Below are positions 2,365 through 32,360 of a stretch of 32,360 nt of DNA, in pieces. Numbering within the stretch: position 1 is the first letter of the stretch; each line of letters starts with the position of its first letter. Under the pieces are notes generated by a model. The model searched no databases. It was given only the letters and a program-made list of their open reading frames with translations, and was not told where the DNA came from. This DNA is from an uncultured Candidatus Saccharibacteria bacterium. GTDB lineage: Bacteria; Patescibacteriota; WWE3; UBA101185; UBA10185. The stretch lies in assembly GCA_964529125.1 (NCBI GenBank), contig CAZGUN010000001.1:1-32360 (forward strand), in the 5' to 3' direction. The position numbers and the translations under genes were made by a program.

Positions 2365-5300
2365 GTGGCAATAAAAGAACAGGTTATTAAAAAATCTGCC
2401 CTGTCCCCCACTGTTTTAATCGCTGGAGGAGCTGGCTTTATAGGATCTCATCTATCGCAAGCGTTGTTACAACGCGACGCGCGAGTTATTGTTTTAGACA
2501 ACTTCAAAACCGGAAAAGATGTATACATAAACTCTTTGCTGGAAAACCCAAAGTTTGCGGTTTTTGATACCGATATTAACGAAGGTTTACCCAAAAATAT
2601 TCAAAGTGTCGATTACATAATTCATTTGGCGGGCGTGGAGTCCTACTTGTATACCCACGACGCTGTAAGTTTAGATTCCTTGCTCACAAGTACTCTTGGG
2701 ACTAAAAATTTGCTTGACCTTGCGCACAAATCTGAAGCAAAGTTCTTGCTTGTTTCCTCAGTTGATGTTTTACAGGCTCAACCTTCACCAATTGATTTGG
2801 ACAGCTACTTCGGCGAGACTTTGGAAGAAGAAAAAAGATATTCGCTAAGTGAGGCAAAAAGATTCGCGGAAGCTTTGGTCTGGGAATATTACAAAAACAA
2901 TCAAACTGATGTTCGTATCGCAAGACTTCCTGAGGTGTACGGTCCGCGAATGAACCTTGCTTCAACCGGAAACTTAGGCCACCTGCTTAAGAATTTGCTT
3001 GAAAACAAAAGCCTGGAAGTTTACGGCGATGGGACCGAAAGAGAATATTACCTTCACATTTCCGACGCAATCTCGGGACTAATTAAATCTTTATTTAATA
3101 AAGGTACGGACGGGAAAATCTTTACTTTAGCTCCCGAGGAACCACATGCAGTTTTGGAAATTGCCTATTTACTAAAAAGTGTTGCGGACGGAAGAACTCA
3201 AATTGATTTTAAACGAAAGGGCACGGGCGAAAGTTTCTTTTCGACAAAAGTGCTGGATAGAACCGATCTGGATGTTTTGAGATGGGAACCAAAAATTGAC
3301 TTTAAGCAGGGTTTAACCCAAACATTGGAATGGTTTGGCTACGAAACCAACGAACATAGCTTTAAGCCCAATAAATTAATTCAAAAAAGAAAAGATGAAA
3401 AGGCCGAGCAAAGAGGCATGTTAGTGTCAACTTTGGTTGGAGCAAAGGATACAGCAGTCGAGAGAATAACCCAACTTGTTTCCGACGCGGAGGAATTTGT
3501 TGAGGAAAGGCTTGAGGTAAAAACAAAGTTTAAGAAAAAAAGGGCTTCGCTACCGCAATTTAGCCAACGCGTAGGAATTATTATTGGAATTTCCGTTGCC
3601 TTATTTATCTTTGTTTTATTGCCCTTTATACAAACCGGCATAAACGCGAGTCTTGGAGTTTCCGCACTTAAGAAAATTCCGCAGGATTTAAGCCAGATGG
3701 ACGCAGAGAAGGCAAAAAGTGACGCCAACTCCTCGTTCCAAAAGCTCCATAGCTCACAATCTTCTCTTGCAAGGTCAAGGTGGCTTTTTGCTGCGGCGGG
3801 CAAACAGGAAACTTTTTCTTCTTACGCGGCATTACTTTCGTCAGCGACTCATTTCGCAAGAGGAACTTACTACATTTCAAAAGCGGCCATGCCCTTTACG
3901 CAAATTTGGGAAACCATAAAACCAAACTCAGGCCTTCAACTTGATGAAAATGCTTTTGTAAACGCACAAGCTAATTTAACCGAGGCTAAAAACAGTTTGC
4001 AAAGGGCTCAGGCCGATTACAAGCGTGTAAATCAAAACGCGCTAACAAAAAACCTTTCGGCAAAAGCGACCGAATACGAAAATGTATTGAATTCCTTAAC
4101 AAAGCATGTTGATGATGCGGCGGTACTTTCGTCAGAAATTCCAGACCTGTTTGGGACGAAGGACGAAATGAAAAGGTATTTAATTTTGTTTCAAAACTCC
4201 AATGAAATACGCCCAACTGGTGGTTTTATAGGTTCATACGCCCTAGTTGAGGTTCAAAATGGAAAAATTATAAACCTTACTATTGATGATATTTACAATC
4301 CAGACGGCCAGATTGATGCTCAAAATATAGAAGTTGCGCCGCCTGCGGTTTTGGGTGAGCTGTTGGATGAAGACCGGGCTTACCTTAGAAACTCAAACTG
4401 GAACCCTAATTTTCCGGAAAGTGCCGCAATTATAAAAAGTCTTTACGAACAGGTTAGCGGAAAAAGAATCGATGGGGTTGCCGCGGTTGATTTGTACTTT
4501 GCAGAAAATATTTTACGCGTAACCGGCCCGGTGTTTCTAACCGCCTTTGGCGAAGAAATAACCGCGGACAATCTTTACGAACGCACTCAGTTTCATAGCG
4601 AATTTAATTACGAAAACGGATCGACACAAAAGAAAGTGTTTCTGACAATTTTCGGCGGAAAACTTCTTGAAGCAATTTTTGCCCTTCCAAATGAGAAAAT
4701 GCCCGACTTACTTCGTGAAATAAACAAAGCTTTAGAAAAAAAGCATCTGTTGCTAACCCTTTCGGGAAGCTCTTTTAACGCGGTTCTTGAGGAAAATAAC
4801 TGGGATGGGGGTCTTGCGGACACTGAGGCTGGAAATTCTGATTATTTATACGTGGTTAATTCAAATGTAGGCGGGACAAAAGCAAACTATTTTGTGCAAA
4901 ACCAAATGTCGTATACGGTTACTTCTCAAACGCGGGACGGACTTTTGAGAGGAATCCTGGTTCTCAACTATAATCACACTGGAAAAGATATGGCCTGGCC
5001 GGGAGGGCCATATAAAGATTACGTTCGCGTGCTAACTCAAACCGGAACAAACCTAACCGGAGCAACTCTTGCGGTAAACGGAACCACTACCGATATTTTT
5101 GAAGGAGTGGTCATAGATAGGGTGCAAAACTACAATTCTTTTGAAACGCTTTTGGAACTTAATCCTCAAGAAAGCGCCCAGCTTACGCTGTACTACGATT
5201 TGCCGGCGCCTCTAAGCATAAACAGCCAAAATGAAGAATATAGCCTCTACTGGCAAAAGCAGCCCGGAACCAGGGCGGATCAGGTAATATTCCGGTTTGA

Positions 5301-5394
5301 GCCGCCGTTTGGCCTAAAAGCGGACGGTAAAAACCAGGTTTTGCTTGAGGAAAGCTTATCTACAGACAAAATCTTCCGCCTGAGCCTGGAATAG
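2365..5394 (+). CDS. Fusion protein: extended-SDR NAD-dependent epimerase/dehydratase-like domain, one TM helix, then a DUF4012 ectodomain
   Basis: 1009-aa ORF with a GTG start preceded by AAGGAAAG. The Rossmann motif VLIAGGAGFIGSHL and the UXS/GalE-like segments (VIVLDNF, RIARLPEVYGPRM, YGDGTEREY) sit at about 2404..3342. The TM VGIIIGISVALFIFVLLPFI is at about 3571..3630. QNSNEIRPTGGFIGSY (4192..4239) is the DUF4012 signature as I recall it. Confidence 0.75.
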   Translation: MAIKEQVIKKSALSPTVLIAGGAGFIGSHLSQALLQRDARVIVLDNFKTGKDVYINSLLENPKFAVFDTDINEGLPKNIQSVDYIIHLAGVESYLYTHDAVSLDSLLTSTLGTKNLLDLAHKSEAKFLLVSSVDVLQAQPSPIDLDSYFGETLEEEKRYSLSEAKRFAEALVWEYYKNNQTDVRIARLPEVYGPRMNLASTGNLGHLLKNLLENKSLEVYGDGTEREYYLHISDAISGLIKSLFNKGTDGKIFTLAPEEPHAVLEIAYLLKSVADGRTQIDFKRKGTGESFFSTKVLDRTDLDVLRWEPKIDFKQGLTQTLEWFGYETNEHSFKPNKLIQKRKDEKAEQRGMLVSTLVGAKDTAVERITQLVSDAEEFVEERLEVKTKFKKKRASLPQFSQRVGIIIGISVALFIFVLLPFIQTGINASLGVSALKKIPQDLSQMDAEKAKSDANSSFQKLHSSQSSLARSRWLFAAAGKQETFSSYAALLSSATHFARGTYYISKAAMPFTQIWETIKPNSGLQLDENAFVNAQANLTEAKNSLQRAQADYKRVNQNALTKNLSAKATEYENVLNSLTKHVDDAAVLSSEIPDLFGTKDEMKRYLILFQNSNEIRPTGGFIGSYALVEVQNGKIINLTIDDIYNPDGQIDAQNIEVAPPAVLGELLDEDRAYLRNSNWNPNFPESAAIIKSLYEQVSGKRIDGVAAVDLYFAENILRVTGPVFLTAFGEEITADNLYERTQFHSEFNYENGSTQKKVFLTIFGGKLLEAIFALPNEKMPDLLREINKALEKKHLLLTLSGSSFNAVLEENNWDGGLADTEAGNSDYLYVVNSNVGGTKANYFVQNQMSYTVTSQTRDGLLRGILVLNYNHTGKDMAWPGGPYKDYVRVLTQTGTNLTGATLAVNGTTTDIFEGVVIDRVQNYNSFETLLELNPQESAQLTLYYDLPAPLSINSQNEEYSLYWQKQPGTRADQVIFRFEPPFGLKADGKNQVLLEESLSTDKIFRLSLE

Positions 5395-17737: not shown

Positions 17738-18024
17738 TAAATTAACTATATATTAAATACGTAGCATTAGTAATAGAAGGTGTTGATAAGTGTATAACAT
17801 GAAGTTTTGTTGCGCCGGCAGCCTAAACAACCTTTCGTCCTTGTATATAACCTAAATTGTTGATATTTCGTTGCGGCCCCAGGCTCTTAGAAGGGCTTTG
17901 CACAGGTTTGACCGTCGTTACAACCTTTTCTAATGTTGAAAACCCCTAAAATCTTGTGAATAACCTTGTGGATAACTAGGCCAGTTTATCCCCATGCCCT
18001 ATAAAATAGAAATACTTATCCCCT
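17738..18024. promoter_or_regulatory. Candidate oriC module: AT-rich tract, TAG/TAA trinucleotide run and a DnaA-box cluster between murT and the dnaA 3' end
   Basis: The perfect box TGTGGATAA lies at 17967..17975. One-mismatch boxes are TGTGAATAA (17955..17963), TTATCCCCA (17986..17994) and TGTTGATAA (17781..17789). A two-mismatch box TTATCCCCT lies at 18016..18024. An AT-rich stretch spans 17738..17760, followed by TAG-CAT-TAG-TAA-TAG-AAG at 17762..17779. Confidence 0.6.
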
Positions 18025-19437: not shown

Positions 19438-19466
19438 TGTGCATAACTATATATAAGTTATCCACA
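19438..19466. promoter_or_regulatory. Inverted pair of DnaA boxes in the dnaA-rpmH divergent intergenic region
   Basis: TGTGCATAA (19438..19446, one mismatch) and the perfect TTATCCACA (19458..19466) are separated by the AT-rich CTATATATAAG. They lie upstream of the dnaA start. Confidence 0.55.
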
Positions 19467-21452: not shown

Positions 21453-22565
21453 GTGAAGTTTACATGCTTACAGGAAAACTTAGCTAAAGGGTTATCTATT
21501 GTGGGCAAAGCCATTTCGGTACGAGCCCCCCTTCCAATTCTTTCAAACGTTTTAATAAATGCTGAAGATGGAAGACTTAAACTTTCCGCGTTTAATATGG
21601 AAACTGGAATTTCTACATACGTCGGGGCCTCCGTTGAAGCAGAAGGTTCAATTACTATTCCCGCAAGACTTTTAAGTGAGTTCGTTTCTTTACTTTCACC
21701 CGGAACCGTAACAGGCGAGCTGAAGGATTCAATTTTGCATCTTTCTTCGGGTGGAACAAAATCAAAGTTTGTTGGTATGGCCGCTTCTGATTACCCAGAG
21801 CTTCCCCAAATGTCCAAAAAGCTTCAAGTATTAGAACTTGCGCCACAGGAATTTTCTTCAGCAATAAACGCAGTGGGATTTTCTGCAGCTTTGGATGACA
21901 GCAGGCCAATTTTAGGTGGGATTTTGCTTAATTATGATAAGGGTGTTTTAACCGCGGTCTCAGCTGATGGGTTTAGGCTTTCCGAAAAAACCCTGAAGGT
22001 TGGCAAGAAAGAAGCAGCCTTTAATGTCGTAGTACCGGCAAAAACCCTCATTGAAGTTGCAAGACTTTTGGGAAGCTCTGATGGGCCAATTAAATTTGCA
22101 TTGGACGCTAACGATAACCTCGCATTATTTGAAGCTGACGGTATTTTAATTTCCACGCGAATAATTGACGGAACTTTTCCTGACTACAAAAAGCTAATTC
22201 CGGGAGAAACTTCTTTAAGCGCGGAATTTTCTGTAAGTGAACTTTTAGAGGCGGTAAAGCTCACAAACGTTTTTGCAAGGGAAATGAATAGTGCAATAAG
22301 TTTAACTTTCGATCCAGAAGGAATGATTTACCTTTCATCTACCGCGCAAGAGTCAGGCGAGAATAACAGCCAGGTTTCTGCAAAAGTAACCGGAGAAAAA
22401 CTAGAAATGGCTTTTAATGCTAAATTCTTGCTGGATTTCTTGAATAACGCTGGTAGTGAGCGTGTTACCTTTTCTACAAACGGAAACATGCTTCCTGGTT
22501 TGTTAAAAGTGGTAGGAGATGAGGATTATCTACACATTATAATGCCGCTGAGAGTTCAGAATTAG
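21453..22565 (+). CDS. dnaN: DNA polymerase III beta sliding clamp
   Basis: 370 aa with a GTG start immediately after the jag stop. Supporting motifs are ILSNVLINAEDGRLKLSAFNMETGI, DSRPILGGILL, IDGTFPDYKKLIP and a three-domain length. Confidence 0.9.
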   Translation: MKFTCLQENLAKGLSIVGKAISVRAPLPILSNVLINAEDGRLKLSAFNMETGISTYVGASVEAEGSITIPARLLSEFVSLLSPGTVTGELKDSILHLSSGGTKSKFVGMAASDYPELPQMSKKLQVLELAPQEFSSAINAVGFSAALDDSRPILGGILLNYDKGVLTAVSADGFRLSEKTLKVGKKEAAFNVVVPAKTLIEVARLLGSSDGPIKFALDANDNLALFEADGILISTRIIDGTFPDYKKLIPGETSLSAEFSVSELLEAVKLTNVFAREMNSAISLTFDPEGMIYLSSTAQESGENNSQVSAKVTGEKLEMAFNAKFLLDFLNNAGSERVTFSTNGNMLPGLLKVVGDEDYLHIIMPLRVQN

Positions 22566-22574
22566 AAAGAGCGT

Positions 22575-24758
22575 TTAGTTTAACTGCGTTACCCGAGTTT
22601 TTCCATCTTCCCCTAAGCTTATTAACCCCTGATTCGAATCGTTTGTGGTGTTTGGTCCGATATCCTGCGCTGGAGTTGAGGTTGGGGGCTTGGGTTGCTG
22701 TACCTGCGGCCGGGCTTGTTGAGGTTGGGAAGCCGGAGTTTGTGGCGTTGGTGGTGGACTTACAGCCCTAACATTTGAAGTCAGCGGAGCTTTGGGAGGT
22801 GTTGGGGCTGTGACCACTGGTCTCGGAACCGTATTTTGCACACCGATTGGTTCATATTTACTAAAATCCACGTTTTGAATTGGTCGGTACGATTGTTTTG
22901 GCGCTTTTGGTTGCGGCATGGATTTTAAGATTTTTTCCTGAGCCTCCGCTCTCATTCTAAGAATTTCCTCCGGGTTTGTCGTTATTAATCTATGTTCCTC
23001 TTCTGACGCCACTACTTTTATAGCTACGTGGTTAGATCCAGCAAAGAACAAACCTTCCCCTTTATCTGCAGCCAAAAGCAATCTTTTCTCACCTTCGGAA
23101 AGATAAAATACTTCTGCAATTCTATCTATTGCCGCGGGGTGTTGTTTCAACAAAACTTGAATCGAAGAGTTACTCACAACTGCATGTCCGTACTCAGACT
23201 TTAAGAAGTCGTCAACATCCTGTGTAATTGTTGTCAATCCCAAGTAATATTTTCTCGCGCGTTTTGCGATACTGTACAAAAACTGTGCACTATCTTTGTT
23301 TTGCATTAAATACCAGGCTTCTTCCATTATCAAAAGTCTTTTTTTCAAATCTTTTCTAATTCGAGTCCAGATAAAATCTAAAATCATAAAAAAGGCAATC
23401 GGTCTTAGAGCGTCTTCAAAATTCCTTGTCGAAAAAACGGTCATTTTAGAACCAAAATTAACATTTGACTGCTGGTCGAATATTCCCGTCATGGAGCCTT
23501 TTATGAACTTTTCCAATCTATCGGCCATGCCGCGAGCCTCAGGTTCTGACGCGCCCAACAGCACTTTATATAAATCTTCCATAACCGGCGGCTCAATGCT
23601 TTGTTGGGTGTCTGGGTCAGGTGTAATCCCCTTTAGACGATAGGTTTCAATTAACGCTCTGTCCAGAATTGCCTCTTCAGTTGGGCTTAAAGCGCCAAGC
23701 ATCAATTTCAAAAGAGTGTGCAGAGAAAGAAGTTTTTGCCCAAGTTCGTTCTCGCCTTCAACCGCGACTCCAGATAAGTCAAACGGATTTATTTTCGAAG
23801 TAGAATTTGCCGAGAAATCTATGTAGTTTCCACCTAAAGCTTCACAAATTGGTCTGTACTCTTCTTCAGGATCAACAATTAAAATTTCCGTCCCAAAAAT
23901 TATTGATCTTATTACTTCAAGTTTTACCATGTAAGATTTTCCTGAACCTGATTTGGCAAAAACTACGGTATTGGCGTTTTCCAAAGAAAACCTGTCGAAA
24001 ATTACCAAAGATCCGTTGTGCTTATTGATTCCGTACATAATTCCCGTATCGGAAGTAAGATCAGACGAAGTGAATGGAAATGTTGTGGCCAAGCTTGTAG
24101 TGTCCATGTTTCTAGTTATCAAAAGCTTATCCACCGCTGTTGGAACTGATGATTGTAGGCCCTGCTCCATTTGCAAAGTTGCGTTCTTAGAAATTAAAAG
24201 CAAAGATCCAAGTGTACCTTCCAAATTTTTAGTTAGGTTGTCCAACTCTTCCAGACTTTCCGCGGGAATTGTTATGTAAAACGAAAATTGGAAGAATTTT
24301 TCTACACCTTTTACTAATTGTTCCTGCAGAGTGTTTGCGTCTTCTAAAGCAGCTACTACTACTGGATCGGCAATCTTTCCTCTTTCCGCATCAGATCTTA
24401 CAGTTGCTTCGAGCTCTGTAATTTTTCTTTTTAAATCATCCAAAATTCCCTGAGACTTAACCGGATAATAAAACATGGAAATATCCAAAGAGTGATCAAA
24501 GTTGATTATTGGAGAAAGCCAGTTTGCGCCAACGAACCTTGGGTAACCCGAAACAAATAGGGTTCTGTAATACGTGTTCCCAACCTTTACGTGATTAAAA
24601 TCTACCTCTATGGCGGAAGGCGCGATTATATCTTTGATATCAACCATACCTCTTCCAATGATTTCCCCCGCCGATTCCCCCTGCTGGGTTTGAATCTGCT
24701 CCTCGCCTGGCGCTTTCCTTGGACTTTTCTTTCCCAGTGTTAATTTTGGTAGTTTCAT
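22575..24758 (-). CDS. virB4: VirB4/TraE-family type IV secretion ATPase with a C-terminal Pro/Gln-rich extension
   Basis: 727 aa. The N-domain pattern is Gram-positive VirB4-like (YYRTLFVSGYPRFVGANWLSPII...DISMFYYP). Walker A AKSGSGKS is at 23934..23957 and a Walker B-like RLLIMEEAW at 23313..23339. GAGGA lies about 10 nt upstream of the ATG. Confidence 0.85.
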   Translation of the reverse strand: MKLPKLTLGKKSPRKAPGEEQIQTQQGESAGEIIGRGMVDIKDIIAPSAIEVDFNHVKVGNTYYRTLFVSGYPRFVGANWLSPIINFDHSLDISMFYYPVKSQGILDDLKRKITELEATVRSDAERGKIADPVVVAALEDANTLQEQLVKGVEKFFQFSFYITIPAESLEELDNLTKNLEGTLGSLLLISKNATLQMEQGLQSSVPTAVDKLLITRNMDTTSLATTFPFTSSDLTSDTGIMYGINKHNGSLVIFDRFSLENANTVVFAKSGSGKSYMVKLEVIRSIIFGTEILIVDPEEEYRPICEALGGNYIDFSANSTSKINPFDLSGVAVEGENELGQKLLSLHTLLKLMLGALSPTEEAILDRALIETYRLKGITPDPDTQQSIEPPVMEDLYKVLLGASEPEARGMADRLEKFIKGSMTGIFDQQSNVNFGSKMTVFSTRNFEDALRPIAFFMILDFIWTRIRKDLKKRLLIMEEAWYLMQNKDSAQFLYSIAKRARKYYLGLTTITQDVDDFLKSEYGHAVVSNSSIQVLLKQHPAAIDRIAEVFYLSEGEKRLLLAADKGEGLFFAGSNHVAIKVVASEEEHRLITTNPEEILRMRAEAQEKILKSMPQPKAPKQSYRPIQNVDFSKYEPIGVQNTVPRPVVTAPTPPKAPLTSNVRAVSPPPTPQTPASQPQQARPQVQQPKPPTSTPAQDIGPNTTNDSNQGLISLGEDGKTRVTQLN

Positions 24759-24764
24759 TTTTTA

Positions 24765-25469
24765 TTATTCCTCAAGAATCGCAGGCTCCACAAGCGCTGT
24801 TCTGTAATCATTTACGTTTGTTCTAATTCTTTGGTTTTGAGAGGTTCCCGGATTGTAAAATTCAAAGTAAAGTTCCACGATTTCCTGCGTGTTTAGCTGT
24901 CTAGCTTTTATTCCAAGTCTGTTAAATTCACCAATCAAGTGCTCCACTTTTGGCAGTAATTCTGGCCTGGCCCTTTCCAGTGCCTGCTCGACATTTACTT
25001 TCACCCTTTTTGCGTGAGTTCCGAAGAGTCTAGTAATCCAGTCAAATGGAGAAGAGCCCAGCTCCTGATACTTTGAGCTTCCAGATGGCACTACCACGTA
25101 AAACTTCTTATCCAAAACGTTATTAACTTTAATAATCTCCTGAATAAATTTTCTGTAAGCCTGCGCCTGTCTTTTTAAAAGAGGATCCGCTAAAGCTTGC
25201 TCTGTTTGGACAACTTTAGCTAGATAGTTTGAAATATCGACTCTTTTGGATCGTATAACAATTTGCATAGGAAACGTTATTGAGTTTAATAGCATGGAAA
25301 AAGCGGCAATGAGCGCGTCTTGTTCAATTTCAGAAAGCAGTGCAAAATTTACAGCAGTAGTTGTTATAACGACCGCCACCCCGCCATTTTTAAGTATCAC
25401 TAAATTGTCTCTTATATCCTCTATGTCTAAATGCTCTTGGGTTGTTGCTTTAATTTCTGGGACAGTCAT
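24765..25469 (-). CDS. Hypothetical soluble protein resembling a stand-alone VirB4/TraC N-terminal domain (no NTPase motifs)
   Basis: 234 aa. TQEHLDIEDIRDNLVILKNGGVAVVITTTAVNFALLSEIEQDALIAAFSMLLNSITFPMQIVI follows the pattern I recall for N-termini of Gram-positive conjugative VirB4 ATPases. It has no Walker A and no TM helix. AGGAAAGG lies upstream of the start. Confidence 0.45.
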   Translation of the reverse strand: MTVPEIKATTQEHLDIEDIRDNLVILKNGGVAVVITTTAVNFALLSEIEQDALIAAFSMLLNSITFPMQIVIRSKRVDISNYLAKVVQTEQALADPLLKRQAQAYRKFIQEIIKVNNVLDKKFYVVVPSGSSKYQELGSSPFDWITRLFGTHAKRVKVNVEQALERARPELLPKVEHLIGEFNRLGIKARQLNTQEIVELYFEFYNPGTSQNQRIRTNVNDYRTALVEPAILEE

Positions 25470-25472
25470 GTT

Positions 25473-26792
25473 CTATGCCTTTCCTACGAACACCAAAGGA
25501 GAAATAATCTGGCCTTTAGCTTCAACGTCAATTATATCAAAGGAATAGCCACTTTCGTTATTAACATCAACCACAACTTTGTAGTGACCGCTTGGCAGAG
25601 GGTTAGTTATAGAAAACTGTCCCAAAGCATTAGTTTTTATAGCCCGTACCGGATCGTTGTGTGCATTTTTAATAATTAGAAGAAGATTAGACAAACTTCT
25701 ATTCCGTGGCCCTCTTACCACACCCGTTACTACATTTGGAATGTTGGTTGGTTGTGGTTCGACCATCTCCGTTTCCTTGACCAATACTTTATTGGTTTCC
25801 GGTTCCTGCACTTTCTGTACCTCTTGTACTTTTGCTTTTGGTAACTCCATCCCCTCGGTTTGACCAAGCTGCTTTAGGAATTGTTTTAATTGCTTGGCCT
25901 TTTCTTCCGCATCTCTACTTACTTCCACGTCCTCAACAGTTTTGAGTACCCTTTCCCCTCTTATTGGAAGTACAATATTACCCTCACTTGAAAGAAGATT
26001 TGTGAATTTTCTTCCGGAGTGTCTATCTGGCGTTATTGGAGATAAAGGTGTCGCAGCACTTTGGGAAGGAGGGATTTTAAATGTCTGTTGTCTTTTTGGT
26101 TTTTTTCTCTGCTGAGGCTTTTGTGGCGACTTTTGTTGACTCTCCCGAGCCCTTTGTTCTCTTTGATCTTTGTCCCCAGCGCTTTCAAGAGCCCCAATCT
26201 CCTTGCCGGTTCCTGGACTCTCCACACTTTCAAAATCTGTTTCCACCAACGGCTCCTCAAGAGCTACAGAAGTTTGCATAGGTTCGGTTGACATAAAAGC
26301 AGCATGGATTTTTTCTATGTACGCTTGCTCAGGAATATCCAAAGGATCAACAGGCTGAGTTTCTTGTTGATATTGCAGAAACTGTTCCAGCTTTCTTCGA
26401 CTTGTTGTTGGAGCTAAAGTTATAAGTTCCTGTTTTACTAAAGCTAGGTTTTCGTGAAGAAATACTGATGGGGGTGTTGCTTCTTTTCGCCAAATCTTTT
26501 GATTCTCCTCGTATATGGCTCTGAAGAAATTAACAATCCATTCGTCCAAACCTCTATCTTCAACAGGGACAAATGCAAAGCCCAGACCAAGAAGAATACT
26601 TCCCACTATTGTTGGCCACTTTAGAACCACGGGAACCCTCAGTGAATATGTGGCATAAGCGATTGCTGCAAATATCATAAGATAGAAAAACTGGCGCATT
26701 GTTAGGTCGCCAATGAGCTTGAACTCAACGTCCATTATGTTTTGCGGAACAGCGTGCTGTTTGTTTGATTGTAACGAATCGGTTATGGGCAT
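25473..26792 (-). CDS. PrgI/VirB3-like membrane protein fused to a charged low-complexity linker and a C-terminal CarboxypepD_reg-like beta-sandwich domain
   Basis: 439 aa. The N-terminus AVPQNIMDVEFKLIGDLTMRQFFYLM plus a two-TM hairpin fits the PrgI (VirB3-like) pattern. The middle is rich in K/Q/E/P (QREQRARESQQKSPQKPQQRKKPKRQQ). The C-terminus VVTGVVRGPRN...AIKTNALGQFSITNPLPSGHYKVVV (about 25476..25739) fits a carboxypeptidase-regulatory-like fold. Confidence 0.6.
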   Translation of the reverse strand: MPITDSLQSNKQHAVPQNIMDVEFKLIGDLTMRQFFYLMIFAAIAYATYSLRVPVVLKWPTIVGSILLGLGFAFVPVEDRGLDEWIVNFFRAIYEENQKIWRKEATPPSVFLHENLALVKQELITLAPTTSRRKLEQFLQYQQETQPVDPLDIPEQAYIEKIHAAFMSTEPMQTSVALEEPLVETDFESVESPGTGKEIGALESAGDKDQREQRARESQQKSPQKPQQRKKPKRQQTFKIPPSQSAATPLSPITPDRHSGRKFTNLLSSEGNIVLPIRGERVLKTVEDVEVSRDAEEKAKQLKQFLKQLGQTEGMELPKAKVQEVQKVQEPETNKVLVKETEMVEPQPTNIPNVVTGVVRGPRNRSLSNLLLIIKNAHNDPVRAIKTNALGQFSITNPLPSGHYKVVVDVNNESGYSFDIIDVEAKGQIISPLVFVGKA

Positions 26793-26829
26793 GCGTGGGT
26801 ATTATAGCGCGCTGCGAAGGAATGTTGGA
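26793..26829 (-). promoter_or_regulatory. Putative internal promoter: perfect TATAAT 8 nt upstream of the PrgI-like ATG
   Basis: On the minus strand TATAAT lies at 26801..26806, followed by ACCCACGC and then the ATG (26792..26790). The -35 is weak and no Shine-Dalgarno motif is present. Confidence 0.35.
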
Positions 26830-28329
26830 CTACTTCTTGAATTTCTTTTCTCCAAGAACCGCATCCTCAAGCTTTTTGGGTAACCCGGCAGCCCATACAA
26901 AGATTGCCATCACAATTATTGGGGTTGTTAGAGATAATATTGCGTTGACAGCGCTACCGCCAATAATACCGACTGGGTTTAATGGGGTGCTGGTGGATGC
27001 GATAGTGTAGCCAGTAGGGCCACAAAAACCCTCCTCAAAACTTGACCAAGCAAATGCCAGCCCAAAGGCCAACCCAAAAGTTACGATGGGTATTGTTAAA
27101 ACATTAACTGCAAGATGCTTAAACCAAGTAGCTATCGAGCTTTCATTACCCGGTATTGCCCCCCACGCAAACTGTATCGGGGCAGCGATAACCAAAATAA
27201 GAATTTTTGCGTAAGCCACTAACCCCTTTATGATCAAAATCAACTGCAGTATTATGTATACAATAAAAGCTAGTACCCCAAGGAGCAATCCTACAAGTCC
27301 AATCCCACTTGCCGATACTGCGGAGAGAAGGCCGTTTATCATTATGATTCCCTGAAGAAGAGGGCTTAGCCCAGCCTGTACCGCCCGATAAGGTTCCCAT
27401 GCCACAGAAGTAAGGGGTTTTATCAAACCTACGGCAAGAGCCCCTATGGCGTAACTAAATGCGATTAATGCCAAGGAAACTATAATTCTGGGAATTGCAT
27501 ATTGAATGGTGACAGAGGTTCTGGGGTCAATCTGCTTTCTCATCATTATCATCATGCCAACAATAAGCATAAAAACGGCCATCAGACCAAAGGCAAGATT
27601 TCTGGTTAGTTTCCAAAGTCTTAAAACAAAAGGGAATCCGACAAAACTATCGCCGCTAGTATCAATTTCTTGGGCGAAGGCTGTGTCTTTAAGAAACATT
27701 GTGTTAGAAGCAACATCCCTCGCATAAAAAGCCAAACTCACAGGCACAGGTTCGTGGTATAAGGCGTAGGTTGCACCCGTAGCTATTCCTGCCAGACTTC
27801 CCGATGAGGGAGACCTTCCAAGGGGTCCAAGAGGTTCAAGACCGGCCGCTGCCGCCGCTGGATTTGCTGTAAGGGTGGAGCACACGGAGCTATCAAAATC
27901 GGCAAGAAGGTCGTTTACCCCGGGGGGCATTGCACATATCTGCGGCCCACCCAGCTGACCATCTAGTGCAAGTAATGCGCAGGCATTAAGTTCTTCTTGG
28001 CTAAGTCCTACTGTTGCTCCGGTTGGTATATCCAAGAGAAGAGATGTGAACATATCTTGAACCGTTCTTCTTATATCTATGTCAGGTAAAATTCGAGCCC
28101 CAGCCTCCCAGACGCATCCGATAACACCTCCTACGAGTCCGATGGTCCACTCATATAAATCGTCTGGTGAGTCGGTAAAACAAGGAATTGGATCATCTCC
28201 AGGAAGCGGCGCGCCTTGCGCGTACGCTTTATTAAAAGGAGTTACCAAAAGTAGTGAGATGATTAATAAGACAAGTGCAGTTTTAACTCTATTTCCTCTT
28301 GCGAACATATCTAAGTTAAATTTTTTCAT
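26830..28329 (-). CDS. VirB6/TrbL-like polytopic T4SS membrane protein with a Cys-containing N-terminal ectodomain
   Basis: 499 aa. The signal peptide ends in ...NKAYA|QG. An extracytoplasmic region of about 200 aa carries several Cys, and at least 6 TM helices follow. The call rests on architecture and on position next to VirB3- and VirB4-like genes. Confidence 0.55.
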   Translation of the reverse strand: MKKFNLDMFARGNRVKTALVLLIISLLLVTPFNKAYAQGAPLPGDDPIPCFTDSPDDLYEWTIGLVGGVIGCVWEAGARILPDIDIRRTVQDMFTSLLLDIPTGATVGLSQEELNACALLALDGQLGGPQICAMPPGVNDLLADFDSSVCSTLTANPAAAAAGLEPLGPLGRSPSSGSLAGIATGATYALYHEPVPVSLAFYARDVASNTMFLKDTAFAQEIDTSGDSFVGFPFVLRLWKLTRNLAFGLMAVFMLIVGMMIMMRKQIDPRTSVTIQYAIPRIIVSLALIAFSYAIGALAVGLIKPLTSVAWEPYRAVQAGLSPLLQGIIMINGLLSAVSASGIGLVGLLLGVLAFIVYIILQLILIIKGLVAYAKILILVIAAPIQFAWGAIPGNESSIATWFKHLAVNVLTIPIVTFGLAFGLAFAWSSFEEGFCGPTGYTIASTSTPLNPVGIIGGSAVNAILSLTTPIIVMAIFVWAAGLPKKLEDAVLGEKKFKK

Positions 28330-28342
28330 ACATTCCCTTTAT

Positions 28343-28370
28343 TTTCAACCATTAGGCAATGATATAGAAT
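28343..28370 (+). promoter_or_regulatory. Putative promoter (TTTCAA-16 nt-TAGAAT) placed to give a leaderless mRNA
   Basis: TAGAAT lies at 28365..28370, exactly 6 nt before the ATG at 28377. TTTCAA lies at 28343..28348. Confidence 0.4.
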
Positions 28371-28376
28371 TACCCC

Positions 28377-30410
28377 ATGGCTTCAGGCAACCCACTTTAT
28401 CCAGGATATTATCCAGGTACACCTTATATTAGAGAACCCTCAGGTGGTGGGTCGAAAAGTAAAAGACCGCCCGAGTATCAACCGAGCACAGCCGACACTT
28501 TTTTTGAAGCTCTTTCAAGTACACCACCAACCTCCATACCATTCTGGCTTTGGCAGCAAGAGGTTCAGCAGGCTGAAGATAGCTTCCTACATTTTGCTGG
28601 AGCTCTAAGCGCGCCAGAGTTAGAAAAAGGGTATGGCCGGTATGCTGGGATAGAAACAGAGATTGAAGCTGGGCAGCAGCAGTTTGGTGCGGAAGAAGCA
28701 CAGGAGCTTCCCGGCGCAGCCGGCATTATGGTAAATCTAAACCCTGTCGATTGGATTAAAGATCCAGTCAAACAGGTCAAAAAGCACTTTGAGAGTTCTT
28801 ATAGAGCCATAGCCGATCTGCAGGATTTTACGACCGATACAAAAGTTCTTATGTGGGCGGGTGAGAAGGATAAGAAGGGTAATGTGACGAGGCCTGGATA
28901 TTTTACTGATGAGAGATCCCCCTTTTATTTAAGGAATGCCGACGGACTTGAAGCTTTGTATAAAGATGTCGAAGTTAGAGTCCCACTTTACATGAGAAAT
29001 AGCGCCTCTGCGATTTTTAGAAACAAAGCCTTTGCGGAGGCGAACGTATCAATACTTAACGCTTTGTCAATAGAGTTATATGCAAAAAGAACCTCATTTA
29101 CTGGAGAGGCTCGTAGGGAGGTTGATCTTTTCGAGGCAGGAGCGGCCGTTGCCGACTCCATGGCTGATCTTGGTGGAGCTTTGTACAAAACAAATGAGTC
29201 TTTTGGCGGGGTTTTTATTAACAAGAGAATATTTGATAAGGATGGAAGAGATAAAACTGCCGATGAGGTTAATAAGTTGGGTGGAGAGATTGCCAGAGCC
29301 AAAGCGGCAATCGGAAAGTTTGAAGGTTTGGGCGTGGAAGTGCCTAAGGAGCTTGGGAAATACAAGGACTTTATACAGACGCTGGATGAGGAGTTTAGTA
29401 GGCATGTACGGGTTGAAAGAGTAGGTGGTGTTTCTAAATGGGTTTTGAATGAGGGGTCAGAAACAGCGCTTAACAAAGTAGTAGACTTCCGCCGGACGCA
29501 ATTATTTAGAGCGACCGCCAATGCCGGTATTGGGGGTACCTACATAAATAACCTTACTAATAGAGAGGTGAGAGATCGAAAATCTAACTTAAACAAAGCA
29601 ATAAATGCTAAGAGAGCAGATGGTTCATACATAGTTAGCGAAGCGGGCCGAAAAGTTGGGTTAGTCTCCGCGATGGTGAGGAGGGACTACGAATGGATGA
29701 CGGCGATGGACTTAGCAAGCGCTTTTGAAGAAGGTAAGCTTTTAAGGCAGTACTTATGGGCCAATATCATTTACCCCCGCATTAAAAGATCTACCCCAAG
29801 CTATTACATAGACAGGTTGAAGGACAAAGTTGTTGCCCACAAATTTACTAAAGACACGTACAAACTTATTAAGGGCAACCGTGTATTTGTTGAGGGGGTT
29901 AGTTTTAAGGGAGTGTTTAAAGGGTATGCAAGGAAGTTAGAGTGGCTACAGAAATCAACTTTAAACAAAGCATACGGATGGGCTTTTAGGCCCGCTGAAA
30001 TGATAGGACGTAGAATTTGGGACGCGGTATTAATAGCGCTTGAAGGTGCATTTGGGGGAGCAACCGGTGGGGTAGGCGCAGTAGTTTTCTGGGTTGTAAG
30101 GCAGGCTTTTGCTTATATTGTTACTAAAGCCACCAAATACTTGAGCAACACTTTCAAAGCCCTTAAGAAAATGGATGCTGGGTATTTTTTTGAAGGCACG
30201 CTTGTTTCACTAGCTAGAATTGTAATGGTAGCAGGAATTGTCTTTGCTATACCGGCGTTTATTATAATAATGCTTTTTGGAATGGTTCTAACGGTGATAT
30301 CCCCTGTGGATTCAACTAAAACTGGAAGTTACAGTGTTGGGCAGGGTACGTTGTCGCCGCAAAACACAACTACTTCTGATCAGACATCCCAACCAATATC
30401 CCCTCCCTAA
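28377..30410 (+). CDS. Orphan 677-aa protein: Pro/Tyr/Gly-rich N-terminus, large soluble region and C-terminal TM helices
   Basis: This uninterrupted 2-kb ORF is transcribed divergently from the VirB6-like gene. I recognised no NTPase or other motif. Hydrophobic helices lie near the C-terminus (IWDAVLIALEGAFGGATGGVGAVVFWVV; IVMVAGIVFAIPAFIIIMLFGMVLTVI), followed by a Ser/Thr/Gln/Pro tail. Confidence 0.6.
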   Translation: MASGNPLYPGYYPGTPYIREPSGGGSKSKRPPEYQPSTADTFFEALSSTPPTSIPFWLWQQEVQQAEDSFLHFAGALSAPELEKGYGRYAGIETEIEAGQQQFGAEEAQELPGAAGIMVNLNPVDWIKDPVKQVKKHFESSYRAIADLQDFTTDTKVLMWAGEKDKKGNVTRPGYFTDERSPFYLRNADGLEALYKDVEVRVPLYMRNSASAIFRNKAFAEANVSILNALSIELYAKRTSFTGEARREVDLFEAGAAVADSMADLGGALYKTNESFGGVFINKRIFDKDGRDKTADEVNKLGGEIARAKAAIGKFEGLGVEVPKELGKYKDFIQTLDEEFSRHVRVERVGGVSKWVLNEGSETALNKVVDFRRTQLFRATANAGIGGTYINNLTNREVRDRKSNLNKAINAKRADGSYIVSEAGRKVGLVSAMVRRDYEWMTAMDLASAFEEGKLLRQYLWANIIYPRIKRSTPSYYIDRLKDKVVAHKFTKDTYKLIKGNRVFVEGVSFKGVFKGYARKLEWLQKSTLNKAYGWAFRPAEMIGRRIWDAVLIALEGAFGGATGGVGAVVFWVVRQAFAYIVTKATKYLSNTFKALKKMDAGYFFEGTLVSLARIVMVAGIVFAIPAFIIIMLFGMVLTVISPVDSTKTGSYSVGQGTLSPQNTTTSDQTSQPISPP

Positions 30411-30868
30411 TTTCCAGGATAGTCAACACAACCTATGCCCCCTTGATTACAGTCGTTTATCATAGTAACAAACTGGGTTACGGCGTTTCGGAGAGCTGTT
30501 GCAGGATCTAGCAAAGCTATGTTAAGTCCAAAAGCCCCAATCAGGATTCTGATAAATACAAAAACACCAATTACTATAATAAACCCCACTACCGCTAAGG
30601 TGAGTGTATCTTTTGCACCCTGAAGTCCCTTTGGATCTCCTTGAGACAGTGAGTATTTGTAACCGGAAACAAAAAGCATTATCAAAAAAACAGCCCCAGA
30701 CATATAAACAAGTAGGTTCAATCCCCTAAAGATAAAATCAAATACTGGTCCCAGGTCGTTTGGGACATCGCTTTGGGCGTATGCGATTCTGTGCAGCTTA
30801 GCAAGTACTGCAGTAGTAAATAAAAATAAGGGTTTTAATTTATTTGTTTTAATGTTTAAGTTTTTCAT
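30407..30868 (-). CDS. TrbC/VirB2-like T4SS pilin paralog 1 (C-terminal extension with a Cys pair)
   Basis: 153 aa. The signal peptide ends in IAYA|QSD. The two-helix hairpin core carries the shared loop motif SGYKYSLSQGDPKGLQGAKDTL. The C-terminus has CNQGGIGC and ends in ...DYPGN. Confidence 0.6.
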   Translation of the reverse strand: MKNLNIKTNKLKPLFLFTTAVLAKLHRIAYAQSDVPNDLGPVFDFIFRGLNLLVYMSGAVFLIMLFVSGYKYSLSQGDPKGLQGAKDTLTLAVVGFIIVIGVFVFIRILIGAFGLNIALLDPATALRNAVTQFVTMINDCNQGGIGCVDYPGN

Positions 30869-30876
30869 ATTTTATA

Positions 30877-31338
30877 CTAAAAAGGCACCGGATTTGGAGG
30901 TTGCCCCGGCGGAATGTGCGCTGGCGGAGGGCCCAAAAAGATACTATCAGGATTTTCAACACCAAGCACATTAATGATCACACCCATTATGGCAAAAGCC
31001 CCAACAGTTACTAATAAAGCTACTATGCTGTACGTAAGTGCTTGCTTTGCACCCATCGCAGCCTTCACATCCCCCCGACTTGACATGTATTTTATTCCAG
31101 AAAGGATTGTAGCTATAAGAGATAGAGCTATACCAATTCCCAAAGCTATGTTAATTACTATTCCAGCCAAATCCTCAACAGTTTTAATTTCGCCTGTGTT
31201 TCCTATAGAGTTTTCAGAAATGCTTTTCAGTAGATCGTTCCACTCTTGCGCCCTTGCCATAGCGGTATTTGCTACAAGAAGAAACCCTAGACAACCTAAC
31301 AATATGAGTACTTTTGAATATTTTGGGAGTCTTGTCAT
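30877..31338 (-). CDS. TrbC/VirB2-like T4SS pilin paralog 2
   Basis: I place the start at ATG 31338 (MTRLPKYSKVLILLGCLGFLLVANTAMA|RAQ, a canonical signal peptide). The track ORF begins at TTG 31359. The core loop is SGIKYMSSRGDVKAAMGAKQAL. The Pro-rich C-terminus ends in ...PNPVPF. Confidence 0.6.
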   Translation of the reverse strand: MTRLPKYSKVLILLGCLGFLLVANTAMARAQEWNDLLKSISENSIGNTGEIKTVEDLAGIVINIALGIGIALSLIATILSGIKYMSSRGDVKAAMGAKQALTYSIVALLVTVGAFAIMGVIINVLGVENPDSIFLGPPPAHIPPGQPPNPVPF

Positions 31339-31365
31339 TACGGAAATAAGTATAAACAATAACTT

Positions 31366-31400
31366 AAAGAAAACAAAATGCCCCGCGCTTGGCGAGGCAT
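31366..31400 (-). terminator. Rho-independent terminator downstream of pilin paralog 3
   Basis: The minus-strand RNA reads AUGCCUCGC-CAAGC-GCGGGGCAU, a 9-bp GC-rich stem (one G-U pair) with a 5-nt loop. UUUUGUUUUCUUU follows. It lies in the 63-nt gap between paralogs 3 and 2. Confidence 0.6.
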
Positions 31401-31422
31401 CTTGTTAACTAAGCAGAAAGTA

Positions 31423-31764
31423 CTAAAAGCCCGGAGGCGTTACACCCGGCACAGCTGTACTTGTAGGAGCACCAATAATGTTTAGCAAGACCGTTCTAAT
31501 GGTGAAAGCTCCAATAACCACGATAAATCCAATTACTGCGTTGGTTAAAGAAGTTCTAGCTTCTTGAGCTGCTTTCTGATCACCTTTGGAGGTAATGTAT
31601 TGAATACCGCCTAAGATCAAAAAGACAATCGTTAAAGCAACACCTATTCCGAGAACAATGTTTATAGCCAAACCCAAAATTTCAGGTAATGTGTCAACAG
31701 ACAAGTTTATTATCGTCGGGGTCGTAGGAATGCTTTGTGCGTATACGTGTTGTAATAATGGCAT
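31423..31764 (-). CDS. TrbC/VirB2-like T4SS pilin paralog 3 (no hydrophobic signal-peptide core)
   Basis: 113 aa. The strong Shine-Dalgarno AAGGAGGTG lies about 8 nt upstream, and an in-frame TAA 12 nt upstream rules out a longer N-terminus. The core loop is GGIQYITSKGDQKAAQEARTSL. The protein ends in ...TPPGF. Confidence 0.65.
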   Translation of the reverse strand: MPLLQHVYAQSIPTTPTIINLSVDTLPEILGLAINIVLGIGVALTIVFLILGGIQYITSKGDQKAAQEARTSLTNAVIGFIVVIGAFTIRTVLLNIIGAPTSTAVPGVTPPGF

Positions 31765-31789
31765 CAGTATTCTTTACACCTCCTTTAAA

Positions 31790-32278
31790 TTAAAAACCAG
31801 GATCGCTTCCTGTAATTAAACTACCAATTAATATTCGCAGGATACCTATAGATAATAGAACGAATAACATGCCCATTATAGCAGATGTGAGCTGTTCTTT
31901 AGCCTCCATTGTCTTTTTTGGATCTCCCTGGCTAGTCATAAACATATAACCGCCTACAACTATGAGGATAAACCCAATGATAATTGCGAGGGGTAGGGTT
32001 ATGTTATACACAATTTTGATAAGACCGCTAACGTCAAACCCCTTTCCAATGATAGGCCCGGGAGGTGTGCCTGTGCATTGGCAACTAAAGTTTCCCTGGT
32101 CATTGGGCACACACTGCCCGCCTGTGTAACCGCCTGCAATACATGCTGAAGCGCACGCATGGGCTTCGCAGGCTGCGTATACTTTTGCGTCTGTTGTTAA
32201 AAGAAATGCTGTGAGTACAACACAGACAACGGAGGCAATCTTTAAAATTTTTCTTTGATATAATGCGTTCATGCCCAC
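31790..32278 (-). CDS. TrbC/VirB2-like T4SS pilin paralog 4 with an N-terminal six-cysteine (defensin-like) module
   Basis: 162 aa, starting at GTG 32278 or ATG 32272. The signal peptide ends in ...DAKVYA|A. The module ACEAHACASACIAGGYTGGQCVPNDQGNFSCQC follows, then a TGTPPGP linker. The core loop is GGYMFMTSQGDPKKTMEAKEQL. The protein ends in ...SDPGF. Confidence 0.65.
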   Translation of the reverse strand: MGMNALYQRKILKIASVVCVVLTAFLLTTDAKVYAACEAHACASACIAGGYTGGQCVPNDQGNFSCQCTGTPPGPIIGKGFDVSGLIKIVYNITLPLAIIIGFILIVVGGYMFMTSQGDPKKTMEAKEQLTSAIMGMLFVLLSIGILRILIGSLITGSDPGF

Positions 32279-32286
32279 TGTCAGGA

Positions 32287-32315
32287 ATTATCGAGGTTAT
32301 GATACTACGAGTCAA
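32287..32315 (-). promoter_or_regulatory. Putative promoter of the pilin operon (TTGACT-17 nt-GATAAT)
   Basis: On the minus strand TTGACT lies at 32315..32310 and GATAAT at 32292..32287. The -10 ends 8 nt before GTG 32278 and 14 nt before ATG 32272. Confidence 0.45.
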
Positions 32316-32360
32316 GTATCCCCACTTTTCATAGCATTTTTTCTCATAACGTTTGCGCTA

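Follow-up and report, generated by a model that had tools for sequence, protein, structure and literature searches.

A chromosomal type IV secretion locus beside dnaN in candidate division WWE3, with signs of exchange as a recombining cassette

Known systems and the WWE3 locus

The closest described relatives of the locus reported here are the type IV secretion systems (T4SSs) of Patescibacteria. Wang et al. (Cell, 2023) reported that epibiotic growth of Southlakia requires its T4SS (SEML1_0006-0019), including the pilin genes, a requirement determined by transposon sequencing in Southlakia only; they recognised neither a coupling protein nor a relaxase in the system (PMC10633639). In 2025, Quinonero-Coronel et al. 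(Microb Genom) surveyed 3,035 Patescibacteria genomes and described a monophyletic patescibacterial VirB4 clade nested in MPF-FATA, with TrsD as the most frequent partner, homologues of PrgI/VirB3 and VirB6, VirB2 arrays of 2-11 genes, almost no relaxases, and frequent closeness to dnaA, dnaN, rnpA, and rpmH (PMC12102498). The patescibacterial T4SS is also covered by a 2025 FEMS review, and a 2026 preprint reported a cultivated relative that takes up host RNA and has tubes penetrating the host. In this study, we examined a 32,360-bp contig of candidate division WWE3, which is analysed at its entire length and called the window below; the genome is known from this contig alone. Nine consecutive open reading frames (ORFs) at 22575-32278 form a T4SS-like locus, the first of which (VirB4) ends 9 bp from the stop codon of dnaN, the two genes being convergent.

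In all likelihood, the locus is the WWE3 version of the Patescibacteria-clade T4SS, descended from monoderm (MPF-FATA-type) conjugation machinery and fixed beside dnaN; it would serve as a pilus or conduit for host contact and behaves as a recombining cassette. The window gives a clean WWE3 example of a known system, not a new kind of system: the lack of a relaxase, the closeness to the origin, the pilin arrays, TrsD, and PrgI have all been published (PMC12102498; PMC10633639; PMC12857230). The original prediction of a domesticated, non-conjugative, origin-proximal apparatus was thus right in substance, whereas its novelty did not stand. Cassette replacement, an orphan protein family with C-terminal heads, and a set of ordered ancient pilins are not described in the papers cited here and are leads, the first two modestly novel. 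Essential in the only lineage in which this was examined, the patescibacterial T4SS is a key question for a phylum that holds a large share of bacterial diversity.

With the Patescibacteria-clade T4SS, the locus shares an MPF-FATA-descended VirB4, a TrsD-like N-domain, a PrgI/VirB3-like protein, a VirB6-like protein (a candidate here), a divergent array of VirB2-like pilins, the lack of a nearby relaxase or type IV coupling protein (T4CP), and a chromosomal place near dnaA, dnaN, rnpA, and rpmH. It differs in its headless orphan, in the evidence for replacement of the whole cassette, and in being known from genes alone; in addition, a SpoIID-type wall enzyme is adjacent, whereas Southlakia has peptidase and lysozyme homologues downstream of virB4. 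The survey does not mention the WWE3 class by name in its main text (PMC12102498). The monoderm MPF-FATA systems (pCF10 Prg/Pcf, pIP501 Tra, and pGO1 Trs) have in common with the locus the VirB4 family (PrgJ is annotated as CD1110), a PrgI homologue, TrsD as in pGO1, and the order membrane protein, PrgI, VirB4. Unlike them, the WWE3 locus is chromosomal, cannot move by itself, and has no detectable PcfC-type T4CP, relaxase, PrgK, PrgL (VirB8-like), or adhesin. It contains VirB2-like pilins, which are absent from monoderm conjugation systems (PMC12857230).

The motor module was identified with NCBIfam and Pfam profiles run on the ORFs, which supported the assignments made beforehand as VirB4, a split-off VirB4 N-domain, and a PrgI/VirB3-like protein (Table 1). 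VirB4 matched NF045971 (conju_CD1110) with 383.8 bits (cut-off 325) over profile positions 185-735, P-loop_TraG (PF19044) at 5.9e-27, and the solved VirB4 structure 4AG5 at E 1.3e-50, and its Walker A (GSGKS) and EEAW motifs were invariant among 12 relatives. The 234-aa TrsD-like protein matched positions 22-157 of the CD1110 profile, and its homologues in relatives matched Pfam TraC-like. Together, the TrsD-like protein and VirB4 span a complete VirB4 profile, so the ATPase is encoded by two separate ORFs, an arrangement also described for pGO1 TrsD and most Patescibacteria (PMC12102498). The PrgI-like protein has two transmembrane helices and, following a low-complexity linker, a beta-sandwich-like domain at its C-terminus, which matched CarboxypepD_reg with 28.7 bits, under the 32.3 cut-off. 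The genes of these three proteins and of a polytopic membrane protein, B6, are co-directional with gaps of 3-37 bp. Among the best 120 VirB4 hits, all the named ones were from WWE3 or Patescibacteria (61-86% identity). The last ~130 residues of VirB4 (22575-22960) form a long Pro/Gln-rich tail of variable length with a conserved terminal ISLGxD motif, and VirB4 lengths in relatives spread over 635-956 aa, mostly because of this tail.

Subsequently, 80 species-representative loci were compared, comprising 1.4 Mb of related sequence with ~10 kb around VirB4. The PrgI-TrsD-VirB4 triad was present in 66/66 loci with enough flank. Of 64 loci, 44 had dnaN immediately adjacent and convergent, 11 more had it within four genes (55/64), and nine lacked it; the position next to dnaN is thus conserved, as the check suggested beforehand was meant to show. 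The order SpoIID, pilins, orphan, B6, PrgI, TrsD, VirB4, dnaN, jag, yidC, rnpA, dnaA recurred in independent assemblies and species, and the architecture from the pilins to dnaN was seen in ~14 species. In most other species, the triad stood alone by dnaN, with an epimerase-DUF4012 gene upstream of it.

Channel candidate, wall enzyme, pilins, and orphan family

B6 consists of a signal/anchor sequence, a Cys-containing extracytoplasmic region of ~190 aa, and 5-6 transmembrane helices, and its gene is located immediately upstream of the PrgI gene, the place that prgH has in pCF10. When the AlphaFold 2 (AF2) model of B6 (pLDDT 76.9, pTM 0.73) was searched with Foldseek, the best matches in the PDB were the R388 TrwI/VirB6 chains in 7o3v/8rtd (E 0.024, prob 1.0, TM 0.36-0.45), and the top seven matches were all R388 stalk chains including TrwI/VirB6 (E 0.024-0.6). 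Neither B6 nor 27 relatives gave a Pfam, NCBIfam, or PDB-sequence match; no TrbL/VirB6 Pfam match was obtained in any of these 28 family members, a profile of the B6 family found no match among PDB sequences, and hhalign of B6 against pCF10 PrgH was not significant (prob 0.3). The profiles and hhalign thus gave no support to the VirB6/TrbL-like label of the original prediction, whereas position, polytopic topology, and the weak fold match fit it. On these three grounds B6 is a probable VirB6 analogue, homology not being demonstrated.

At the other end of the locus, the gene past the pilin array encodes a divergently transcribed protein of ~608 aa in four independent assemblies, L004-L007, which represent the closest species, and likewise in L001/L003, from a second species. 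The 608-aa homologue of L001 matched PF08486 with 66 bits, and 28 of the 30 residues encoded in the window were identical to the L007 homologue. Because this SpoIID-domain gene starts in the last 90 bases and is cut there, the earlier statement that no VirB1-type cell-wall hydrolase is present was partly an artefact of the contig end. The description of the locus as minimal likewise fails, given the SpoIID-type gene and an orphan family that normally carries a peptidoglycan-hydrolase-like head. A link of SpoIID to a second, non-dnaN architecture was considered and dropped when Pfam showed coiled-coil and Peptidase_C39_2 proteins there.

Among the four predicted VirB2-like pilins, only pil3 exceeded the PF18895 cut-off; pil1, pil2, and pil4 fell under it, yet they are clear paralogues, the four being 29-37% identical, and on this basis the prediction of four pilins is supported. 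Their common layout is a hydrophobic helix, an SxGDxK loop, a second hydrophobic helix, and a PG[FN] C-terminal end, and a profile of the four found no match among PDB sequences. Across species, positional pilin orthologues were 38-79% identical versus 29-37% for neighbours in the same genome, and positional orthologues of pil1 were found in L007, L001, and L087. Since each pilin is nearer to the gene at the same position elsewhere than to its own neighbours, the array is an old ordered set. These values point to ancient paralogues in a fixed order rather than recent duplicates for antigenic variation. The VirB2 paralogue arrays of Bartonella and Anaplasma also hold multiple divergent pilin paralogues, whereas the WWE3 pilins are ancient, with positional orthology kept across species.

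Directly after pil3 lies a GC-rich hairpin followed by a U-run, and hairpins non-homologous in sequence occupy the same position in L007 and L001. The hairpin is likely a terminator or attenuator that divides pil4-pil3 from pil2-pil1. Together with the best match to the pilin family, it hints at pil3 as a candidate major subunit, and ordered ancient pilins with a hairpin after the best-conserved one suggest a heteromeric pilus with one major subunit. The 8-Cys insert of pil4 and the two-Cys extension of pil1 could provide minor pilins with an adhesive or tip module. Weak, sub-threshold Pfam matches of the pil4 insert were to defensin-like and SLR1-BP families. The true start codon of pil4 is probably downstream of 32278; position 32315, given earlier as the end of the locus, belongs to a spurious overlapping ORF, and the pil4 ORF ends at 32278.

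The orphan gave no Pfam or NCBIfam match. A word-indexed search found two relatives, and a search with a profile against 1.84 billion representatives retrieved 175 at E <= 0.001. At every examined locus, its gene separates the pilins from B6 and is on the opposite strand. The family has a median length of 1,117 aa, and most members have 200-400 residues past the transmembrane region. Of 41 scanned members, eight had a C-terminal head of the CHAP type, three of the Peptidase_C39_2 type, and two of the NlpC/P60 type; an HExxH motif was present in 26/151 members, and several locus copies had classic M23 motifs. The copies in the window, L087, and L001 are headless and end right after the membrane helices. 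The N-terminal motif NPxYPGYYPG is invariant and MAxxNPxYPGYYPGxP (28377-28430) nearly so, with a mean column identity of only 15% over the family; it may be a recognition or docking motif. An AF2 model of the orphan from a three-sequence alignment was unusable (pLDDT 38.6) and was discarded.

Directly downstream of the orphan, a gene for a small N-terminally anchored protein was found at 14/14 head-bearing species loci (L007, at 2747-3367, L008, L014, L024, L034, L037, L041, L047, L052, L053, L059, L060, L070, and L086) and at 0/3 headless loci. The family of this partner co-varies with the head family of the orphan. The orphan family, a component not annotated before, would connect the T4SS to diverse wall-degrading domains, each matched by a partner protein. 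The CHAP and M23/LytM heads presumably resemble the wall hydrolases PrgK and TraG of monoderm T4SSs. The main partner family has an FxFSEP...NTPPD pattern, for which an Ig-like fold is a candidate reading by eye, and no partner gene stands beside the orphans of the window, L087, and L001. Because of its N-terminal transmembrane helix and its domain of ~150 aa, the partner was also considered as a possible candidate for the missing VirB8-like component; its sequences fall into several unrelated families.

We propose that VirB4 would be docked by TrsD and PrgI onto a VirB6-like channel, where it would pull pilins from the membrane and polymerise them into a pilus or tube. With the help of the SpoIID-type enzyme and, for most relatives, of the orphan's hydrolase head, this tube would cross the symbiont wall, and it would then contact or penetrate the host bacterium. 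The apparatus would then serve host attachment and macromolecule exchange, not conjugation.

A Ced/Ted-like machine, importing DNA or other nucleic acid as a source of nucleotides or repair templates for a cell unable to make them, is another possible function, which we regard as rather unlikely. The archaeal systems have the same kind of reduced VirB2/VirB4/VirB6-like set without a relaxase, NCBIfam profiles of CedB and CedD gave weak matches, and Patescibacteria lack nucleotide synthesis. Furthermore, the cultivated relative of the 2026 preprint takes up host RNA and has host-penetrating tubes, and T4SS genes of the ABY1 class lie beside comF, recG, and radA (PMC12102498). However, the match to CedB (NF041017) reached 37.8 bits versus a cut-off of 700 and that to CedD 20.7 versus 600, whereas CD1110 passes; the WWE3 VirB4 is thus not of the CedB type. 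Its evolutionary origin also differs, most patescibacterial VirB4 being nested in MPF-FATA, apart from the archaeal importers (PMC12102498). In Southlakia, deletion of comEC ends competence but not viability (PMC12857230); because comEC is dispensable for viability and the T4SS is essential, the essential role of the T4SS is not ComEC-dependent DNA uptake.

We also judge it improbable that the locus is a system for effector delivery or attack on the host wall, in which the orphan family would be a polymorphic effector with swappable heads and cognate, membrane-anchored, immunity-like partners, the window allele being disarmed. The diversity of the C-terminal heads (CHAP, C39_2, NlpC/P60, HExxH, and M23 motifs), the strict occurrence of the partner gene with a head, the co-variation of the two families, and the strongly conserved N-terminal motif are what such a system would present. 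Nevertheless, transmembrane helices before the head equally fit a resident, membrane-anchored wall hydrolase like PrgK or TraG, the co-variation could reflect shared ancestry only, and the motifs of the main partner family, read by eye, suggest a surface domain of the Ig-like type. Moreover, the window allele is still an intact ORF in the conserved position with neither head nor partner. A resident wall hydrolase and a polymorphic effector with its immunity protein both fit the orphan family, and we do not choose between them.

Divergence of the cassette from its flanks

The window was compared with L007, the closest species, with nucleotide identity taken from BLAST-based windows. The flank genes (dnaA, rnpA, yidC, jag, dnaN, and MurT) showed 90-99% protein identity and a synonymous divergence (dS) of 0.50-0.67; for dnaN, the values were 96% and 0.54. 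Within the locus, VirB4 was 86% identical (core 93%) with a proportion of synonymous differences of 0.75 in the core, that is, saturated, and TrsD (85%) and PrgI (64%) were also synonymously saturated. B6 (32%), the orphan (36%), and two pilins were unalignable as DNA. The dN/dS ratio was 0.034 for VirB4 and 0.036 for dnaN, and since these are equal, the extra divergence of VirB4 does not come from relaxed or positive selection. Along the contig, identity to L007 fell from ~89% to ~79% exactly at the stop-to-stop junction of dnaN and VirB4 (22566-22574), little or nothing aligned at 26.8-31.5 kb, and identity was back to 96% in the last 110 bp (32249-32360), at the start of pil4 and SpoIID. 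The contig ends where this conserved right flank resumes, as is expected if the sampled population contains several cassette variants with this flank in common.

An intrinsically high synonymous rate of VirB4 was rejected, as three other close pairs had a dS of the VirB4 core close to that of dnaN (0.89 vs 0.79, 0.98 vs 0.93, and 0.70 vs 0.65). Over 1,596 species pairs, the ratio of VirB4-core to DnaN divergence had a median of 0.44 and a 5th-95th percentile range of 0.33-0.54. The pair of the window and L007 was the most extreme of all with 1.85, the next highest being 0.74. A diversity-generating retroelement was also considered and rejected: there is no reverse transcriptase, the RVT_3 match at 1242-1643 is RNase H, and the divergence spans 10 kb.

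The window B6 was 40% identical to the L001 copy and 32% to the L007 copy, and because B6 identity does not track TrsD identity, the block is a mosaic. A closer copy of this cassette type, headless orphan included, was found in L087, which comes from an unrelated sample, with 92% identity in TrsD, 70% in PrgI, 53% in B6, 55% in the orphan, and 54-79% in the pilins, which are in the same order. Among L018, L019, L029, and L030, dnaN paired 29 with 30 and 18 with 19, and the VirB4 core paired 18 with 30 (99.5% identical). This incongruence suggests recombination near the locus in a second species group.

The simplest reading of these data is that the ~9.7-kb block between dnaN and SpoIID was replaced by homologous recombination between close relatives. 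Long-lived divergent alleles are the alternative, and either way the history is not plain vertical descent. The claim that the position of the locus supports vertical inheritance therefore holds for the position, whereas the history of the cassette is far deeper than that of its flanks. On the proposed reading, the dnaN-SpoIID block would be a hypervariable recombining locus whose outward-facing parts cannot be aligned between species with flank proteins 90-99% identical, and in which even VirB4, a slowly evolving protein, coalesces much earlier than the flanks. Homologous recombination would exchange whole cassettes, and selection for host specificity is a plausible driver. By our own analogy, O-antigen and capsule locus switching likewise involves a hypervariable block between conserved flanks with a history deeper than the core genome. 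In contrast to those surface loci, the WWE3 block includes the channel and accessory proteins and reaches into the ATPase.

Several points weigh against the reading of the locus as a host-contact T4SS exchanged as a cassette. The exchange is deduced from one close species pair, the right-hand flank amounts to only 110 bp, and the 5-kb dnaA-dnaN flank, not the cassette, could be the recent import. The VirB6 assignment of B6 rests on weak fold similarity, and a T4CP or relaxase may exist elsewhere in the genome, T4CP-like genes far from virB4 being common in Patescibacteria (PMC12102498). In addition, the same pattern would result from a metagenome-assembly chimera of two co-occurring, related WWE3 populations. 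As a single metagenomic contig, the window stops exactly where the conserved flank resumes, and strain-level branch points commonly break or mis-join assemblies. We hold such a chimera to be distinctly unlikely, as it needs two switches, at ~22.57 kb and ~32.25 kb, and as the flank itself has ~89% nucleotide identity to L007, which makes a second, L007-like population unnecessary. The headless cassette type is also present independently in the sample of L087, and the closest pairs of dnaN and VirB4 disagree among L018, L019, L029, and L030 as well.

Exchange of the cassette would allow a more specific proposal, which we put forward tentatively, as possible rather than probable: the locus would be a recombining host-specificity cassette, with entire T4SS alleles, from ATPase and channel to accessory protein and pilins, swapped among WWE3 lineages through homologous recombination at the conserved flanking genes. 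The orphan would be a conserved carrier of swappable peptidoglycan-hydrolase heads that, with their partners, breach the host wall, and the window allele would be naturally headless. If so, the cassette type would set which hosts an episymbiont can parasitise. Outward-facing T4SS parts and an ATPase whose history is decoupled from that of the core neighbours match the picture expected of a host-range determinant that naturally competent symbionts exchange.

Conjugation genes and neighbouring regions

No T4CP, relaxase, VirB11, VirB8/9/10, or integrase domain was found in any scanned ORF of the window, no tRNA gene occurs in the window, and no att-like repeats bracket the locus. The absences predicted for the window, namely of a VirD4/TraG coupling ATPase, relaxase, VirB11, and VirB8/9/10, and of an integrase, a flanking tRNA, and direct repeats, were thus borne out by domain scans and by tRNA and repeat searches. 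Phmmer searches with the pCF10 coupling protein PcfC, relaxase PcfG, PrgK, PrgL, and the Tn916 integrase found no homologue in the 1.4 Mb of related loci, whereas pCF10 PrgJ, as the positive control, found 88 VirB4 in the same loci and matched WWE3 VirB4 at 1e-46 to 1e-47. The kept position and the absence of a T4CP, relaxase, and integrase within ~10 kb of VirB4 in relatives agree with a domesticated chromosomal apparatus.

An ordinary integrative and conjugative element, with its relaxase, coupling protein, and integrase outside the window, is highly improbable: although VirB4 and PrgJ, the latter from the conjugative plasmid pCF10, fall into one NCBIfam family, the order B6, PrgI, VirB4 mirrors prgH-prgI-prgJ, and the cassette bears signs of lateral exchange, the locus keeps a constant chromosomal position between housekeeping genes in relatives from many samples, lacks a tRNA, att repeats, and, over the 80 species, nearby conjugation and integration genes, shares the even base composition of the window, and has exchange borders inside conserved genes, as expected of homologous and not site-specific recombination, and only 109 relaxases, 15 of them near virB4, are reported from 3,035 Patescibacteria genomes (PMC12102498).

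Table 1 Features of the window. Positions are those of the 32,360-bp contig.
Feature	Position	Strand	Basis or remark
VirB4-type ATPase (CD1110 / MPF-FATA type), without N-domain	22575..24758	-	Pro/Gln-rich variable C-terminal tail
TrsD-like protein, 234 aa, split-off VirB4 N-terminal domain	24765..25469	-	NF041427 5.7e-8
PrgI/VirB3-like protein, 439 aa	25473..26792	-	PF12666 34.6 bits (cut-off 27)
Polytopic membrane protein B6, 499 aa, candidate VirB6 analogue	26830..28329	-	Position, topology, weak fold match
Orphan, 677 aa	28377..30410	+	Conserved N-terminal module, C-terminal transmembrane helices; between motor module and pilins
VirB2-like pilin 1 (pil1)	30407..30868	-	PF18895 1e-4 (below cut-off); pil3 paralogue; C-terminal extension with two Cys
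VirB2-like pilin 2 (pil2)	30877..31359	-	Paralogy; below profile cut-off
Terminator-like hairpin, 15-bp GC-rich + U-run	31372..31406	-	Directly after pil3; predicted -26.7 kcal/mol
VirB2-like pilin 3 (pil3), 113 aa, leaderless	31423..31764	-	PF18895 T4SS_pilin 43.1 bits (cut-off 26.6); NF045849 7.3e-8
VirB2-like pilin 4 (pil4)	31790..32278	-	8-Cys insert after signal peptide
SpoIID-domain (cell-wall lytic) protein, first 30 codons, cut by contig end	32271..32360	+	Cassette right border, conserved
dnaN (beta clamp)	21453..22565	+	Left border of cassette, conserved; convergent with VirB4
dnaA	18023..19465	-	Bac_DnaA 2.6e-62 + Bac_DnaA_C + DnaA_N
DnaA-box-like cluster, four sites, oriC-like	17781..17994	.	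MurT-dnaA intergenic region
Two further DnaA-box-like sites	19438-19466		Other side of dnaA
Wzz-like gene	1640-2260
Epimerase-DUF4012 fusion	2365-5394
RNase H; ribosomal protein L25	within 1-17.7 kb		Domain scans
Class I tRNA synthetase; ProRS; GreA; TsaD; solute-binding protein; Wzy; GatD; MurT	within 1-17.7 kb		Domain scans

Domain scans of the window ORFs showed that bases 1-17.7 kb hold housekeeping genes, after which the replication-region genes dnaA, rpmH, rnpA, yidC, jag, and dnaN follow; the nine consecutive genes predicted beside dnaN were confirmed as ORFs. A search for TTATCCACA with up to one mismatch gave 17 matches in the window versus 7.7 expected, six of which flank dnaA, and the clusters lie 3-5 kb from the T4SS locus. 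Because DnaA-box-like sites cluster on both sides of dnaA, the term origin-adjacent is reasonable.

The epimerase-DUF4012 fusion and the Wzz-like gene are 17 kb from the T4SS in the window and directly upstream of PrgI in most WWE3 species. Because of this distance, the block of B6, the orphan, and the pilins (and more) is inserted or relocated relative to the majority arrangement. In a third architecture (L023, L028, L043, L049, L051, and L058), the triad is not beside dnaN. For L043, Pfam assigned the genes following the triad to a holA-like DNA polymerase III delta subunit and to a sortase; downstream of these lies a MurJ flippase. The ORFs of L023, L028, L049, L051, and L058 match L043 in size and order, and a sortase beside a pilin-assembling ATPase may deserve note.

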